Positions 33,001-42,000 of a stretch of 64,000 bases of DNA are shown here, in pieces. Position numbers: made by a program. Source of the DNA: Fervidicoccaceae archaeon (GTDB taxonomy: Archaea > Thermoproteota > Thermoprotei_A > Sulfolobales > Fervidicoccaceae). The stretch lies in the NCBI GenBank assembly GCA_038734945.1, contig JAVYOA010000002.1, positions 248,001-312,000 of the forward strand, read 5' to 3'. Every line of letters starts with the position of its first letter. Positions within the stretch are counted from its first letter, which is position 1.

Positions 33001-36000
33001 TTCCTTCAGCTTCTTTTCAGCTTCAGTACGAACGCTAGCTGATAGGCTTCCATGATGAACTTCCACATCCTTGTAGCCCAGCTCCCTGAATTTGTAGGAT
33101 AGAAATTCGGCTGTATCCCTAGTGTTTGTGAATAATATTGTGCTTTTTTTCTGCTCCATTATTTTTCTAAGCTCCTTAATCACTTTGTAGTTGATGTCTT
33201 CACTCTCATTTTCTTCAAAGGGGATGGAGCGTACATCGATTATCATTTTCTTCATTTCGTTCTCCTTTATCTCTGCACATTCTGAACAAGAAAGGAGCTT
33301 TTTCACTGTATTGAACTTTGATATAGTTGCAGAAATAGCAACGAGCTGAAAAGAGCCAATTTTTTTCCTCAGTCTCTCGAGAACTACCGAAAGCATTGCT
33401 CCCCTTTCATTCTCAATCAGTTCATGGACCTCGTCTATGACTACCCATCTTATATCGGAAATGATGTTTTTGAAGGCTCTGTGAGTTACTATAATGGAAA
33501 AGCTCTCTGGAGTTGTTATGAACCAGTGATGCTTCCCTTCAGTGAATTCCCTCCTCTCCTTCCTCGATGAATCCCCGTGCCTGACAATGCTTCTCAGACC
33601 CATTTCATTTGATATCTCCCTCATTCTAACATAGATATCTCTATTCAGGGCCCTCATTGGCGTTATATAGACCATCAATGGATTCCCTTTCCAGCTGTTC
33701 TGTTCAACCATCATAGAGAATATTGGGAAAAGCGCTGCTTCGGTTTTTCCGCTACCAGTTGGAGCTGATATTATTACGCTCTTTCCCATGAGTATCAGTG
33801 GTATTGACTTCTCCTGAATCGGAGTTGGTTTAATGTATCCGTATTTTTCGAGAACTGCCTGTAGTTTTGGATGCAGGTCTCTGAAGACTTCCGAGCTCTT
33901 AAGCACCTTTCCGAACCTCTGAATTTTTGGAATTTTTTCGAAGCAATAGCAGCATCGAATTTTTATTTTCATTTTTCAGAATATTAATCTGAGTCCATTG
34001 TAAAAACAAGCACATTTTCAGGTGAGAAAAATGAAAGTTCTAATAGCTGGAGGTGCTGGCTTTCTTGGATATGAAGCAGCAAAGCACTTCGCGAAAAAGG
34101 GGCATAAAGTAATATTGTTAGATCCAGCAGCAAATCAGAATCAAATTTTGAGCGAAAATGTTGAGATAATTTCCGATTCTATAAAAAACATAGAGAATTT
34201 TGGAAATTCTATTGGAAAGACTGACCTAATAATTCACTCAGCCTGGGATTTTACCGAAGATGTTAAAAGAAGCATCAACGAGAATCTTCTAGGAACTCTG
34301 TCACTAGCGGAGTTCGCTCTGAGCTCTGGCTCCCGAAGGTTTGTTTTCTACAGCAGCTCAGTTATCTATGGAAAGCCTGTTTCCATTCCTATTGCTGAGG
34401 AGCATCCTTTGAATGTGGAGGAATCAAGGGCCCCTCTCCATGCACTATTGAAGCTATATACGGAGAAGCTTCTCTTGCATTACCACGCTTATAAGCATCT
34501 TCCTTTGACCATCTTCAGGATTTGGTGGAGCTTCAATGATGAGAGAGCTCCTGGAAAAACATACAGAGAAATTTTGGCAAAAATCAAGAAAGGAGAAAGG
34601 ATCGAGGTCCCTGCCGGAGCAGGGGGAAGCATAGTCTATGCTCCCGATCTTTCTCTGGCAGCAGAAAAGGCACTAGAAACAGAAGAAGCGAATGGAAAGA
34701 TATTCAATGCTGTGAGCTTCTTTTTTGAATGGAGTGAAGTGCTAAGGAAAATAGCAGAGAGAGTGGGCTCTAGGTCAGAAATTGTTGAAACTAGAGGCGA
34801 ATGGAATGGACCAGGATTTCTAGAAGGAAGATGGCAGCTCGATGACTCAAAGATGAGAAGAATTCTTAACATAAATGTAGATGCAAATGAGAGGGAAAAG
34901 AAGTTCATCGAAGTCTCCCTAAAGATGCTGGAAAAGCTTCCATAGTCCTGACTTTACTCATCTGAAAGCTCATTTCTAAGAACTATGTTTTTTTTCCCTG
35001 TCCTAAAAAAGTGAAAATCCTTCAGAAGAGGGAGTTAAAAAAAATTATTTTTGTGCGGGCTGTGTTGGCTGGGCAGGAGGAGTAGGAATAGCTGCTGCTT
35101 TTTTCTTCGGCTTCTTTAGAATCCATGGATTAACGAGTACTGCTGCTATCAAAGCTCCAATGCCAAGGCCAATTATAGAGTATGTGTATGTTCCAAAGGT
35201 AACAAGCAGCCATGCTGTTATGTATCCTGAAATAAGCCCTCCCCAGCTCTTTGCTGTGTAAGTTATACCATAGTTGGTGGTAGCATATCTTGGACCGTAG
35301 AAGTCCCCTATAAATGCTGGATTGAAAGCGAAGACTGCCCCTGCAAATAGCATTGCGAGAACTACGAAGGCAGCAAACCCGGTTGGATTGGTGGCCGTTA
35401 GACCAAGAGCTATCATGAAAACTCCAGCTAGAGCATAGAATAGAGTTGCAGTGAGTTGCCTCCCAATATAATCGGAGATCCATCCTCCAAGTATTCTGCT
35501 AAATCCATTTGCCAGAGGATATGCTACCAAGACAAAGTTCAATATTGTTGCGGGAATCTTGTTCTCCTTAGCCATAGGTTTCACTTGCGCACCAAACAGT
35601 AGAGCGATTGCTGCTACTATTGTGAAAGAAATGTAGATCAGCCACCACTGTGGGGTCTTTAGCATTTCATACCATTTCCAGTTCACTGTATCCTCCTTCT
35701 TCTCCTCTTTCTTTTCTTCCTTCTTTTCCTCCGTCTTTTGCTGCTTCTGCTGTTGCTGCTGTACGAACTCAGGGTACTTGTAGAAGAATGTAAAAGGCAA
35801 TATGAATATCAACATCAGAATTCCAACATATAGAAAGGCGGTTTTTGTTCCATAGTTAGTAATCCATGCCTGGAAGGGTAAGTTGAATATTGCTGTTCCA
35901 GCACCGAAGCCGAAGGTTACAATTCCAGTTGCCAGTCCTCTTCTGTCAGGGAACCACTTCACTGCTGTTGCTGCTGACATCCCATAGAGCATGCCTACCC

Positions 36001-39000: not shown

Positions 39001-42000
39001 AAGCATAGTATACTTCTGGATTCCAGAACTCACCAGTGAACTCTGGGAGCTCGATTTCCCTCTTTATCTTCCTGGCCATCTCTGTTTCTTCAGCAAGAAC
39101 ATGAACCTCCTTGACAGAAGCAGCTTCATATCCCTTCCTTACCGATTCCTTCTTTTTCTCCTTTCCTAGAACATCAAGTGCGCTGAGCAAGGAATCGAGG
39201 TCCACCCTATCCCAGGCTCTTGCCAAGGCTCCAAGCATCGGATAGGCAATTGCTGAATCTATCTTGGCTGCGCTTATTGTTACAACTTTTCCGAACCAGT
39301 CCTGCGCCAAGTTGTACTTCTTCACCAATCTCACTACATCATCTGGAGATATTGATGTGTTCACAAGGAGAACTGCATCCTTCTTGGCTCCATCAAAAAG
39401 AAGGGCTCTCTGCGAAGTCTTTTGCAATAGCAGGCTGGAGCTGAATACTGCTATCACGTTAAAGAGCTCTCCAACTGGCTCAACCTCCTCGTGCAGAAGA
39501 ACAGGGACCTTTGGCTTTCCGAAAACTGTGTAGAATATCATTGGAATGTAGTTTCGCTCGGGGCTGTCGTCATACCTCATGTAGTAATACGTTTCTATTC
39601 CTTTCACCGATCCTGCTTGCGCTAGAGTCTGCGAGAAGGATGTCATGTCTGCTGTATGGTCCACGCCCAGTCCATGTGCTATTACCCAATCAAGCTCTTC
39701 GTATTCTGGATATCTTTCCACTTTTGGTGTAACCCTCACTAATTTTACTGGCAAATTTTCACCTCGCTTTATTAGTGTAAATAATTTATTATAAATGAAA
39801 ATCGCATGATTTTCCGCTGTTGATTCAATAATAATAAAAATTTATAATATTTTATAATTTTTAAAAAAATAAAACTAAAAAGAAAAATTAATTTTTTAGA
39901 AATAAAAATAAAACTTCTCATTCCTCAAACTTTTTATTCCCCTATAAAATAAAGAAACATTGTCACGGCTTCTTGGAAGGAGTGATAGCTTTGAGTGAGG
40001 AGGAGGAAGTGGAGGAGGAAAGCACACAGGAAATTGTGGAGGAGACGGAGCGCGCAGCAGAAAGCGAGGCAGAAGAAGAACTGGAAGTTACTCCTGAAGA
40101 TATGAAGGTAATGGTAGATATAATAGAGAAGATAGAAGAAGCGTATGAGGGAAAGCTATCTTCAAAGGAGCTAGAGAACATATACAAGACAAAGGCCGAA
40201 AAAAAGGTGAAGGAAAAGGAGAGGAAAGAAAGAAAGAAGAAAAAATGACTTTTTATTTATATTAGATACTCAAAGACTCTTCTTCCTCTATAGCTGTATA
40301 TGATTGTCTTGACTGCCATAACTTCCTCAATGCTGTAGGCTATACTCTCTCTTCCAATGCCACTCTCCTTTCTCCCGCCATACGGATAATACCCTATTCC
40401 ATGCCTTGGTATATCATTGACATAAATTGCTCCATATTCAAGATATCTTATCAGCTTTCTAATTCTGTTTATATCCTTTCCAAAAATTGATGCATCTAAT
40501 CCAAAGCGTCTGTTGTTAGCTAGCCTTATTGCCTCATCATCGTTTTCATATTCAAATATGATTGCTACTGGCGCAAAAATTTCCTCCTTGTAGAGGAGAA
40601 TATCATTTAGCTTGCTTTTATCGCTTATTTCTATTAATGTGGGTTCCACATAGTTTCCGCCCAGCCTTTTTCCCCCATAGAGGATCCTCCCTCCCTTTTG
40701 AACTGCATCCTCAATCCCTCTCATCATATCCTCAACTGCTTCAGCAGAAATTAGAGGCCCCATTGTTACGCTGGGATCCCTGGGATCTCCTATCTTCACC
40801 TTTGAAAGGTTCTCCACTATCTTATTTTTCAGCTGTTCAAATATGGAGGTGTGAGAGATTATCATTTTAATAGCATCGCATCTCTGTCCAGCATAGCTGT
40901 ATATGCCGGCTGCTATTAGCCTCGCAGCATCATCTATCTCTGCATCTGGAAGAACTATAGCTGGATCCCCTCCGCCTAGCTCCATCAAGTACTGCTTAAT
41001 TCCTCCAACCTTCAGAACTCTTTTCCCAGTCTCACTGCTTCCAGTTAAGCTTATTACTCCAATTCTACTATCAGCTACAATTCCATCCATCTCACTTCCT
41101 GGAACGGTTATTACCATTAAAGATTCTCTTGGAAAGCCTGAAGCCTCAGCCACCCTCGCAAAGAGAATGGAGGGAACTGGAACCTGTGTTGGAGGCTTTA
41201 TTATTACAGCATTTCCTGCTATTGCGCTGTACGTGAATTTAGCTACTGTATCGAACAAAGGATAGTTGAACGGAGAAATTGCAAGGACAATCCCATAGGG
41301 CTCTTTCCTTACAATGCTCTCAGTTTCCAATGTGGACTGGTCCCAATCGCCTGGTATATAGTCACCATACATCTTTCTGAGATCCAGCTCTGACCTCCTC
41401 AGCCTCTCAATGCTCGCATTTACCTCCCCGCTAGCCTGCTCCCTAGTTTTTCCTGCTCCTATTATGAGAGAATCTATGAATATGTTTTTGTGCTCCTCGA
41501 TGAGCTCAGCCATTTTCTCGAGATATTTCATCCTCTTATATCCTGGAGTATTTCTTATCTTCCACCTACCGCTCTCATGCAGTTCCTTTATGTAGGGCTC
41601 GACTTCCTCATATGTGAGCCTTGGAACAGTTCCTACTACACTTCCATCTATTGGAGAATATATTTTCTGCTCATTCTTTCCAAAGATCCATCTTCCAGCA
41701 AGATATGCTCTGTATCTCCTCATCCCTTCTCTTTCTTCGAATGCTGGCGAGAAGAATTCTTCGCTCATCTTGGCTTCCCTTTTTTAATTTTAAATTGTGT
41801 AAGAATATAAAAATTTAATAAAATTTTTGCTAAAAATTTTGCTTTTTTAGGCGCCGGGGGCGGGATTTGAACCCGCGCTCCCCCAATGGGGAACTGGCTC
41901 ACCAGCTCTGTCTCCAGGCCAGCCCCTTAGTCCGCTCGGGCACCCCGGCTCAATATTTTACTTCACCCTTCCTCAAAGCTTCGTCTGCTTCCTCCAAGTC

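Follow-up and report, generated by a model that had tools for sequence, protein, structure and literature searches.

An oxalate oxidoreductase-like enzyme and an adjoining OFA-family carrier in a hot-spring archaeon

Organization of the locus

The window analyzed here (the whole stretch of 64,000 nucleotides) derives from a hot-spring archaeon and contains four co-directional genes that encode the delta, alpha and beta subunits of a 2-oxoacid:ferredoxin oxidoreductase (OFOR), followed by an MFS carrier of the OFA type. When the open reading frames were retraced (35045-39754, all on the minus strand), the locus was recovered as described in an earlier survey, which read these genes as a module for oxalate uptake and oxidation.

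38615-39754, minus strand: delta subunit, 379 aa, TTG start; N-terminal, gamma-like domain III fused to ferredoxin domain V
38675-38860, minus strand: domain V of delta, 2x[4Fe-4S] ferredoxin
37369-38604, minus strand: alpha subunit, 411 aa, domains I+II (POR_N and PFOR_II in Pfam)
38470-38484, minus strand: YPIRP motif of alpha, residues 41-45, with Arg44 equivalent to Arg31 of oxalate oxidoreductase (OOR) (translation and PDB-match alignment)
38212-38241, minus strand: switch-loop region RALDDPGNFG of alpha, residues 122-131 (translation and alignment)
36413-37372, minus strand: beta subunit, 319 aa, domain VI, TPP binding, one [4Fe-4S] (TPP_enzyme_C domain)
36335-36412, minus strand: spacer of 78 bases between beta and the MFS gene (read from sequence)
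35045-36334, minus strand: OFA-family MFS carrier, 429 aa, TTG start (MFS_1 domain)
35495-35497, minus strand: carrier Arg280, equivalent to OxlT Arg272 (alignment)
35249-35251, minus strand: carrier Lys362, equivalent to OxlT Lys355 (alignment)

The beta and alpha reading frames overlap by 4 bases, a GGTGA motif lies 5 bases upstream of the delta TTG start, and a T-run follows the carrier stop codon. Within the spacer, a T8 run directly after the beta stop is followed by an A/T-rich, TATA-like stretch and then by GGTGA ahead of the carrier TTG, an arrangement that may give the carrier a separate promoter in addition to read-through from beta. The aldehyde dehydrogenase encoded upstream of the locus is GAPN and is unrelated to the OOR-like genes. 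Elsewhere in the genome, three other OFOR alpha subunits (403, 406 and 638 aa) all carry YPITP, as the survey had stated, and belong to two four-subunit enzymes and one two-subunit OFOR; the OOR-like enzyme is therefore an extra one.

Alpha and beta subunits

In PDB searches, the alpha subunit matched Moorella thermoacetica OOR (5c4i_A) with 310.6 bits (E 1.6e-91) versus 212.7 bits (8.6e-62) for PFOR 9bt4_B, which reproduced the earlier E values exactly, and the beta subunit matched 5c4i_C with 326.4 bits versus 213.1 for 9bt4_C. OOR thus led the best PFOR by ~100 bits for both subunits. The OOR model was also the top NCBIfam match for each of the three subunits, with scores of 357.8 bits for alpha (cut-off 500; PorA_Arch 303.1, cut-off 550), 375.6 for beta (cut-off 590; PorB 299.4) and 102.4 for delta (cut-off 230). 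However, none of the three reached its curated OOR cut-off (NF045790-NF045792), and identity to Moorella OOR was ~42-51% according to the survey, both of which speak against oxalate as the substrate.

Alignment to 5c4i_A again showed that Arg31 of YPIRP, Arg109 (Arg122 here) and Phe117 (Phe130) are kept and that Asn129 stands at the position of OOR Asp116, with Asp126 at that of Pro113. PMC5020499 calls YPIRP unique to MtOOR and names Asp116, alongside Arg31, as important for the mechanism. The loss of Asp116 (Asn here, Ala in the sister subfamily introduced below) is a point against oxalate, as is alpha column 112, which is Gln in the archaeal clade and Arg in 99% of PFOR-type sequences and in both other subfamilies. 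The beta subunit has only four cysteines (26, 29, 54 and 228), each opposite a cysteine of OOR beta.

Delta subunit

Exactly eight cysteines are present in delta (309, 312, 315, 319, 336, 339, 342 and 346), all of them invariant in 28 homologues, and Pfam returned Fer4 alone, with no PF01558 match for domain III. The survey had aligned delta with OOR delta, a sequence match that proved strong in the ferredoxin part (59 bits) but weak in domain III (16.7 bits). A structural model of delta (pLDDT 87.5) nevertheless had OOR delta 5exd_B as its best fold match over ~350 columns (E 7e-19, TM 0.82), with PorC gamma chains ranking behind it. The model supports delta as a predicted OOR-type subunit in which domains III and V are fused.

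Placement among YPIRP enzymes

Trees of the alpha subunit (FastTree, n=113; IQ-TREE, n=43) placed YPIRP-type sequences on one side of a single branch with support of 98 and 100, respectively; the outlier P0155, with the loop PGSFG, falls on this side although it has no YPIRP match. Three subfamilies can be told apart by their loops, i.e., PGDFG (Moorella type; representative P0128 matches 5c4i_A with 511.7 bits), PGAFG (Chloroflexota, Acidobacteriota, Nitrososphaerota) and PGNFG (archaeal, including the window's enzyme). When alpha columns were compared with 83 PFOR/VOR-type representatives, fifteen were common to the three subfamilies (at least 90% in each) and rare in the latter (<15%), including Arg44 and five switch-loop columns; the loop signature in common consists of D125, G128, F130, G131 and E133. 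The Arg31 column is at least 90% Arg in each subfamily and Thr in 93% of the PFOR/VOR-type representatives, whereas columns 129 and 126 vary: the archaeal group has N and D there, the Moorella-type group D and P, and the PGAFG group A and D. Consistent with the survey, the 120 closest homologues among the matches listed have YPIRP in all cases and R.LD.PGNFG in 117.

Moorella OOR (5c4i, 5exd, 5exe) and the window's enzyme share three subunits in the order delta-alpha-beta, the III+V fusion, 8 + 4 cluster cysteines, Arg31, Arg109, Phe117 and the loop frame L-D-x-P-G-x-F-G-x-E, and the side of the tree; Moorella OOR is the best sequence match of each subunit, and it too has an OFA carrier nearby. 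They differ in that the window's alpha forms part of a separate subfamily with 35 columns fixed differently, carries Asn for Asp116, Asp for Pro113 and Gln for Arg at query column 112, and belongs to an archaeal host; domain III is barely similar, and the curated cut-offs are missed. Both trees recover the uncharacterised PGAFG subfamily (representative P0126) as sister to the archaeal one (support 98 and 91). It likewise carries YPIRP, LDDPG.FG and Asp at column 126, keeps the gene order and has OFA carriers in its neighborhood. It differs by Ala in the Asp116 column, by identities of 42-48%, and by its own recurrent neighbors: GntR/FCD regulators occur at 10 loci and an acyl-CoA-ligase-like gene at 5. 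Four-subunit archaeal PFOR/VOR (9bt4; PorABDG) share the superfamily, the cofactors and the Asn of the Y-x-N-T-G TPP motif in beta, but have YPITP, an unrelated loop, separate gamma and delta subunits and scores ~100 bits lower.

These sequence comparisons support a placement of the window's enzyme in the Arg31 (YPIRP) group with Moorella OOR rather than with PFOR/VOR, as the survey had proposed; it is a sister subfamily of OOR, outside the curated equivalog. The survey's view of an archaeal clade applies to the PGNFG subfamily but not to its wider kin, as the sister PGAFG subfamily is mostly bacterial.

The OFA carrier and its recurrence

Oxalobacter formigenes OxlT (8hpj/8hpk; TIGR04259) was the best PDB match of the carrier (8hpj, 166.7 bits versus 140.7 for SfMCT). 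Among NCBIfam models the nominal top match was the lactate carrier SfMCT (293.3, cut-off 320), a point against oxalate, followed by OFA (286.6, cut-off 374.85) and OxlT (281, cut-off 335), with every cut-off missed. Binding-site residues were mapped after PMC10070484 and by pairwise alignments. The window's carrier keeps all five first-shell OxlT residues (Gln34, Tyr35, Tyr124, Arg272 and Lys355), whereas SfMCT has Cys at the Lys355 and Leu at the Gln34 position. Tyr150, Tyr328 and Trp352 are swapped for other aromatics; differences from OxlT are Ala for Trp324, Thr for Gln63, Ala for Gln66, Ile for Pro273 and a Gln/Glu/Lys-rich insert in the central loop.

The genome (99.95% complete) holds no second OFA-like gene at E<=1e-5. 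Neither frc and oxc nor a recognisable formate dehydrogenase was found in the genome, nor was a formate-producing partner pathway such as OxlT has. OOR chemistry produces no formate. Since no formate-forming step was found in the genome either, the oxalate:formate antiport suggested by the survey is unsupported.

OFA carriers lie within 5/37 archaeal (PGNFG), 8/43 PGAFG and 24/80 Moorella-type (PGDFG) loci, varying in position and orientation with at least six arrangements in several phyla. All 37 of these neighboring carriers keep Tyr35 and Tyr124, Arg272 is conserved in 36/36 and Lys355 in 33/33 of those covered at that position, and four of the seven carriers scanned passed the OxlT equivalog cut-off of 335 (L066, 591.9; L083, 571.7; L123, 479.9; Bathyarchaeia L019, 382.9 bits). 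The link between enzyme and carrier is supported as no local accident, because OFA carriers adjoin the enzyme in loci of further clades.

The pair is kept in 3/3 genomes of the genus. Conversely, 32/37 archaeal loci had no OFA carrier (flank of at least 1.5 kb on one side in 32/37), which argues against oxalate, and among close relatives outside the genus no carrier was seen at 2/3 loci examined. In G011 and G022, members of the same family, the operons lie among tRNA synthetase genes without a carrier, and no close OFA gene was found in either genome. As most archaeal loci are without a carrier, an "uptake module" is limited to the genus and to a small number of lineages elsewhere. Gene neighborhoods of the archaeal loci are heterogeneous, and the operon is patchy, being present in 6/61 genomes of the order sample.

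Proposed oxalate oxidation and alternatives

We lean towards an enzyme that works like Moorella OOR, i.e., CoA-independent oxidation of oxalate to 2 CO2 that feeds ferredoxin. From the survey's oxalate module, the OOR grouping, the fused delta and the recurrent OFA carrier have stood; oxalate itself is a substrate that we infer, against missed curated cut-offs and Asn in place of Asp116. The enzyme would be an (alpha-beta-delta)-type, TPP- and [4Fe-4S]-dependent OFOR. Oxalate would be imported by the adjacent carrier, with Arg280 and Lys362 taking the two carboxylates, and be held in the enzyme by Arg44 and Arg122; attack by the TPP ylide would then lead to oxidation to 2 CO2 without CoA. The missing switch acid may be replaced by Asp126, three residues earlier, which is Pro in Moorella-type enzymes. 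Two electrons would pass from the beta cluster via the two delta clusters to ferredoxin, to be re-oxidised probably by complex-I-like modules and possibly down to NarG nitrate reductase; the genome contains NarG as well as complex-I-like NuoD genes.

It is possible, though rather unlikely, that this OOR-like enzyme acts on a different small 2-oxoacid, polar or anionic, of intracellular origin (glyoxylate from glycine, oxaloacetate, hydroxypyruvate or oxamate), as one more member of a peptide fermenter's set of amino-acid-derived 2-oxoacid oxidoreductases, with the carrier as a lineage-specific addition. The unkept Asp116, the carrier's absence at most archaeal loci including G011 and G022, the aminotransferase gene just downstream of the G011 operon, and the mobile, patchy character of a self-contained three-gene cassette (an integrase adjoins it in G022) are consistent with this. 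Moorella OOR also slowly turns over a few other 2-oxoacids. On the other hand, the carrier that recurs beside three subfamilies is of the OFA type and has the two basic residues that a dianion needs, in some cases scoring above the OxlT cut-off; the sole characterised oxalate enzyme likewise has the Arg44 equivalent and the loop signature, and no neighbor consistently indicates glyoxylate or oxaloacetate metabolism. Several Bathyarchaeia loci have GGT-like amidohydrolase genes upstream, in one case together with a carbamate kinase, which also fits this alternative, but the GGT-like neighbor is far closer to ordinary GGTs (6j3a, 440.9 bits) than to 5hft (66.1 bits), which we take to be the oxamate amidase HpxW (its PDB match title gives gamma-glutamyltranspeptidase only). 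The oxamate pathway mentioned by the survey was not found as a cluster in the parts of the genome examined.

That enzyme and carrier are neighbors without a functional link, the carrier moving lactate, formate or another monocarboxylate, appears improbable. The T8 run and TATA-like stretch permit separate transcription of the carrier, which also counts against oxalate, SfMCT is its top NCBIfam match, and G015 of the same order has a 49%-identical carrier without an OOR-like alpha at E<=1e-110; against this stand the repeated adjacency across three enzyme subfamilies, the kept Lys355 and the pair's conservation in the genus. Finally, a pyruvate:ferredoxin oxidoreductase, as database names have it ("pyruvate ferredoxin oxidoreductase" or "2-oxoacid:ferredoxin oxidoreductase") and as the second-best NCBIfam matches PorA_Arch and PorB might suggest, is very hard to reconcile with Arg in place of the YPITP Thr, the branch separating the window's alpha from all YPITP enzymes, the ~100-bit deficit with PorA and PorB cut-offs not reached, and the YPITP enzymes that the genome already has. 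Pyruvate reportedly inactivates Moorella OOR.

Overall, oxalate oxidation is the reading we favor. Despite one differing catalytic residue, this archaeon may burn oxalate, because its enzyme is nearer to OOR than to pyruvate enzymes and adjoins the genome's only oxalate-carrier-like transporter.

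Organization of the locus

In the window, reading of the open reading frames placed the delta, alpha and beta subunits of a 2-oxoacid:ferredoxin oxidoreductase (OFOR) and a major facilitator superfamily (MFS) carrier of the OFA family side by side.

35045-39754 (-), four genes in the same direction: delta, alpha, beta and MFS

The encoded proteins comprise 379 (delta), 411 (alpha), 319 (beta) and 429 aa (MFS). Delta and alpha are separated by 10 bases and alpha and beta overlap by 4 bases, while the 78-base spacer between beta and the MFS gene, inspected by eye, carries a T8 run directly behind the stop codon of beta, a TATA-like stretch rich in A and T, and a GGTGA motif; a further T-run stands at the end of the MFS gene. 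Pfam domains are POR_N and PFOR_II for alpha, TPP_enzyme_C for beta, 4Fe-4S domains only for delta, and MFS_1 for the carrier.

Contigs from an RNA library (X6) matched the locus as pieces of 234-466 bases at ~95-98% identity, covering 36144-39134 (a portion of delta, then alpha, beta and the beginning of the carrier gene) and leaving the flanking genes almost uncovered; one piece bridged the beta-carrier junction. As this is the sequence of a relative, could stem from DNA carry-over, and consists of contigs that are not proof of a transcript, the coverage was set aside as evidence of expression. Raw reads of a hot-spring metatranscriptome (X15) yielded 0 placed reads from ~3% of the run, which is too little for a test.

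Three further genes lie upstream on the same strand.

40257-41768 (-), archaeal NADP-dependent GAPN
41950-42654 (-), nucleotidyl transferase
42704-44041 (-), RuBisCO large-subunit homologue

All three are outside the oxalate module. The aldehyde dehydrogenase 500 bases upstream of the enzyme genes was considered as a glyoxylate-to-oxalate step and ruled out, as it is GAPN (810.5 bits; cut-off 780); this gene and the form III RuBisCO located past it are part of central carbon metabolism.

The enzyme resembles oxalate oxidoreductase

The survey's finding had likened the enzyme to the oxalate oxidoreductase (OOR) of Moorella thermoacetica, and repeat searches reproduced its PDB-search figures. 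Its residue mapping was likewise recovered by alignment: through YPIRP and RALDDPGNFG, the window alpha keeps OOR Arg31, Arg109 and Phe117 and replaces Asp116 with Asn. Among the homologues listed, YPIRP occurs in 120 of 120 and the PGNFG loop in 117, and the other three OFOR alphas of the genome carry YPITP. Roles of the OOR residues were taken from extracts of PMC5020499 and from general background.

Arg31 stands in place of Thr in all 121 clade members examined, and the counterparts of Arg109 and Phe117, which belong to the substrate site and the switch loop, are Arg122 and Phe130. Asp116 of the "bait and switch" loop, named as mechanistically important in those parts of PMC5020499, is Asn129 in the window alpha and Asn in 118/121 clade sequences. 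The subunit composition agrees with that of OOR, with three subunits, a delta corresponding to domains III and V, and exactly eight cysteines in delta (invariant in 28 homologues) and four in beta (aligned with cysteines of OOR beta) for three [4Fe-4S] clusters. The proposed likeness of delta to OOR delta holds in sequence for the ferredoxin part and not for the rest, and in fold over ~350 columns of a structural model built with 28 homologues (pLDDT 87.5). The eight best fold matches of this model were all OOR delta chains (including 5exd_B), followed by PorC gamma chains over the first 200 residues only. Delta is thus, like its OOR counterpart, a domain III fused to a domain V.

The curated OOR equivalogs were missed by alpha (NF045791, 357.8 bits; cut-off 500), beta (NF045792, 375.6; 590) and delta (NF045790, 102.4; 230). 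Since all three cut-offs were missed and Asp116 is absent, the enzyme should not be filed in the curated OOR equivalog. Its mode of action is most probably that of OOR, to which it is best regarded as a sister subfamily.

Three subfamilies share the YPIRP motif

A search of alpha representatives at 50% identity combined with motif reading identified three kinds of YPIRP sequence, distinguished by their loops: RTLDPPGDFG (Moorella type; representative P0128, 511.7 bits against 5c4i_A), RALDDPGAFG (P0126, 355.9 bits) and RALDDPGNFG, the loop of the window alpha (310.6 bits). Alpha trees were calculated with FastTree (113 rows) and in a quick IQ-TREE run (43 rows). All YPIRP sequences fell on one side of a single branch with support of 98 and 100, respectively, joined there by an outlier (P0155) with a PGSFG loop and no YPIRP match. 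The PGNFG group received support of 100, its sister is the PGAFG group (98 and 91), and the Moorella type lies outside both. The window alpha thus groups with OOR and apart from PFOR/VOR, but in a subfamily of its own that is not nested in the Moorella type. Named PGNFG members come from Fervidicoccaceae, Desulfurococcales, Sulfolobales, Bathyarchaeia, Thermoplasmatota, Methanomethylicia and Nitrososphaeria, and those of the PGAFG group mostly from Chloroflexota and Acidobacteriota, with some Nitrososphaerota.

Columns were compared between 121, 92 and 21 sequences of the three YPIRP groups and 83 PFOR/VOR-type representatives. Fifteen alpha columns, including Arg44, D125, G128, F130, G131 and E133, are common to the three groups and rare elsewhere, and at 35 columns the archaeal and Moorella types each have a fixed residue of their own. 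One position sets the archaeal clade apart from both other groups.

38269-38271 (-), alpha residue 112: Gln in the archaeal clade, Arg in both other YPIRP subfamilies and in 99% of the 83 PFOR/VOR-type representatives

Within the loop only two columns vary, the Asp116 column (N/D/A in archaeal, Moorella and PGAFG types), with a fixed Asp in the PGDFG subfamily alone, and that three residues earlier (D/P/D). Each loop thus retains two acids, in different places, and Asp126 may do the work of Asp116.

The carrier retains the first shell of the OxlT binding site

Against the PDB, the carrier was closest to the oxalate carrier OxlT (166.7 bits, versus 140.7 for the lactate carrier SfMCT), and it missed all NCBIfam cut-offs, scoring 293.3 of 320 bits for SfMCT (NF049980), 286.6 of 374.85 for OFA (TIGR00890) and 281 of 335 for OxlT (TIGR04259). 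Binding-site residues of OxlT were compared as described in extracts of PMC10070484. The first shell is fully kept (OxlT Gln34, Tyr35, Tyr124, Arg272 and Lys355 correspond to Gln27, Tyr28, Tyr117, Arg280 and Lys362), and the second-shell residues Tyr150, Trp324, Tyr328 and Trp352 are Phe, Ala, Phe and Tyr, three of the four still aromatic; most other carriers adjacent to an OFOR retain Trp324. In SfMCT, which has a single basic residue, Cys occupies the Lys355 column, where the window carrier has Lys, and Leu replaces both Gln34 and Tyr150. The equivalents of Arg272 and Lys355 would suit a dicarboxylate; however, both basic residues are conserved throughout the OFA family according to the same extracts of PMC10070484, and are therefore no proof of oxalate.

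The central loop of the carrier contains a low-complexity insert that OxlT and SfMCT lack.

35690-35761 (-), Gln/Glu/Lys-rich insert QQQQQKQQKTEEKKEEKKEEKKED, MFS residues ~192-215

A repeat within it (35691-35715) was skipped in read placement.

The carrier accompanies the enzyme in some lineages

The gene adjoining the enzyme is the only OFA-like gene in the genome. Across fetched loci, OFA-like genes were present at 5/37 of the archaeal clade, 8/43 of the PGAFG group and 24/80 Moorella-type metagenome loci, counts that are not independent because many loci are incomplete and the 80 metagenome loci are mutually close kin. These neighbours stand upstream or downstream of the enzyme, on either strand and 35 to ~5000 bases away. 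The five archaeal loci comprise two Fervidicoccaceae-like records and one each from Desulfurococcales, Thermoplasmata and Bathyarchaeia; neighbours at most archaeal loci are unrelated housekeeping or assorted genes. The idea of an uptake module thus fits the window's genus and a few lineages beyond it, but not the clade at large, most archaeal loci being carrier-less.

Tyr35 and Tyr124 are conserved in all 37 neighbouring carriers, as are Arg272 (36/36) and Lys355 (33/33) where covered. Four of the seven neighbouring carriers scanned passed the OxlT equivalog cut-off, including one from a Bathyarchaeia locus of the PGNFG clade (L019, 382.9 bits). At L123, a Moorella-type locus from a soil metagenome, both the carrier (479.9 bits) and alpha (592.6 bits; OOR cut-off 500) exceeded their cut-offs, which ties the pairing to the characterized type.

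Among 61 genomes sampled from the order, the enzyme occurs in six (three members of the window's genus, two other genomes from its family and one of another family). A close carrier is present in all three members of the genus and in a single genome that lacks the enzyme. Genes for tRNA synthetases surround the operon in the two same-family genomes, G011 and G022, with an adjoining aminotransferase in G011 and an integrase in G022. Delta, alpha and beta thus move together as a cassette, to which some lineages have added the carrier. The G022 integrase gene is of phage type and lies directly downstream of the operon (L188, 10005-11048 on G022:C3), which fits the patchy distribution of the cassette.

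Other neighbours were noted at individual loci. L123 (379-11893) encodes, in order, a GntR/FCD regulator, a CDC48-like AAA ATPase, domain III as a gamma subunit of its own, a flavoprotein, alpha, beta and the OxlT-class carrier. The flavoprotein (609 aa, NAD(P)-binding Pyr_redox_2/Fer4_20) has a C-terminal ferredoxin part that replaces delta, and this Moorella-type OOR variant may be a pyridine-nucleotide-linked oxalate oxidoreductase. GntR/FCD-family regulators recur upstream of the enzyme at ten PGAFG loci (L056 and nine others) and at 49/80 Moorella-type loci, and none was seen at archaeal-clade loci. An acyl-CoA-ligase-like gene recurs in five PGAFG loci. Members of the archaeal clade also have one-carbon or amide genes as neighbours: in L028 the gene after beta is a fragment of a molybdopterin oxidoreductase (3721-4406), and formate-tetrahydrofolate ligase and FolD lie a few kb from the enzyme in three Bathyarchaeota-like loci (L032, L035 and L040).

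Metabolic context in the genome

Neither oxalyl-CoA decarboxylase nor formyl-CoA transferase was found in the 99.95% complete assembly. The genome encodes two molybdopterin enzymes, a NarG nitrate reductase and a Phs/Psr-like protein, neither of which came near any formate dehydrogenase cut-off. No formate source for an OxlT-style exchange thus emerged, and the proposed oxalate:formate antiport was not upheld. Plausible sinks for reduced ferredoxin are present, although we infer the electron route; complex-I-like NuoD genes number two. The alpha subunit of this respiratory NarG is full (1598 bits; cut-off 1084) and lies outside the window at G000:C9:85218-88820 in this 1.34 Mb Fervidicoccaceae-like genome. 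Fervidicoccus fontis, a described relative, lives by fermentation.

Substrate of the enzyme

We predict oxalate as the physiological substrate, with somewhat better than even confidence. Another small polar 2-oxoacid is possible, if less probable.

It is improbable that the PGNFG and PGAFG enzymes, having no acid at the Asp116 column, are non-oxalate enzymes that oxidize oxamate or a similar neutral analogue. Such a reaction, with loss of the carboxyl group and of two electrons, would yield carbamoyl-TPP, which could leave the enzyme as carbamate or carbamoyl phosphate, with ATP formed via carbamate kinase; if true, this would be an anaerobic purine/ureide breakdown ending in ferredoxin reduction and ATP. 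The leads, and they are leads only, are neighbouring genes: a GGT-like amidohydrolase and carbamate kinase (396.3 bits; cut-off 358.25) just upstream in Bathyarchaeia L018 (2915-6723), GGT-family genes in six archaeal-clade loci and one PGAFG locus, located just upstream of delta in Bathyarchaeia (L018, L022, L023, L026 and L043), and a formamidase/acetamidase-family gene after beta in L019 (7629-8528). The GGT-family neighbours may be linked to oxalurate/oxamate breakdown. However, the GGT-like neighbour is only weakly similar to 5hft (66.1 bits, versus 440.9 for ordinary GGT), an entry titled gamma-glutamyltranspeptidase that we take to be the oxamate amidase HpxW. An oxamate pathway had also been attributed to the window's genome, where no cluster was found around either candidate gene: the carbamate kinase adjoins an ABC transporter, and at a distance of 7 kb the GGT-like gene sits next to asparagine synthase.

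That the enzyme is a pyruvate:ferredoxin oxidoreductase (PFOR) is highly unlikely, as Arg replaces Thr31 of the YPITP motif of archaeal four-subunit PFOR, delta is fused rather than divided into separate gamma and delta, and the cut-offs were missed for PorA_Arch (303.1 bits; 550) and PorB (299.4; 405).

Significance of an archaeal sister of OOR

To our knowledge, and in the papers that could be searched, OOR has been characterized only in Moorella thermoacetica. Our literature search found no paper proposing an archaeal OOR, although key OOR papers outside its reach may carry remarks on homologues; in extracts of a 2024 review of oxalotrophy, archaea are mentioned once, solely for oxalate formation. 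The natural exchange of Asp116 for Asn or Ala, with an Asp shifted to loop position 113, allows the proposed "bait and switch" mechanism to be tested directly. If oxalate is indeed the substrate, a "PFOR" clade of Thermoproteota, Bathyarchaeia, Thermoplasmatota and Nitrososphaerota would be re-read as oxalate-oxidizing, as would its sister clade of soil Chloroflexota and Acidobacteriota. The organisms that turn over oxalate, a major acid of plant and fungal origin, would then include archaea along with many uncultured inhabitants of soil and peat, and thermophiles would gain oxalate as a very low-potential electron donor for ferredoxin.
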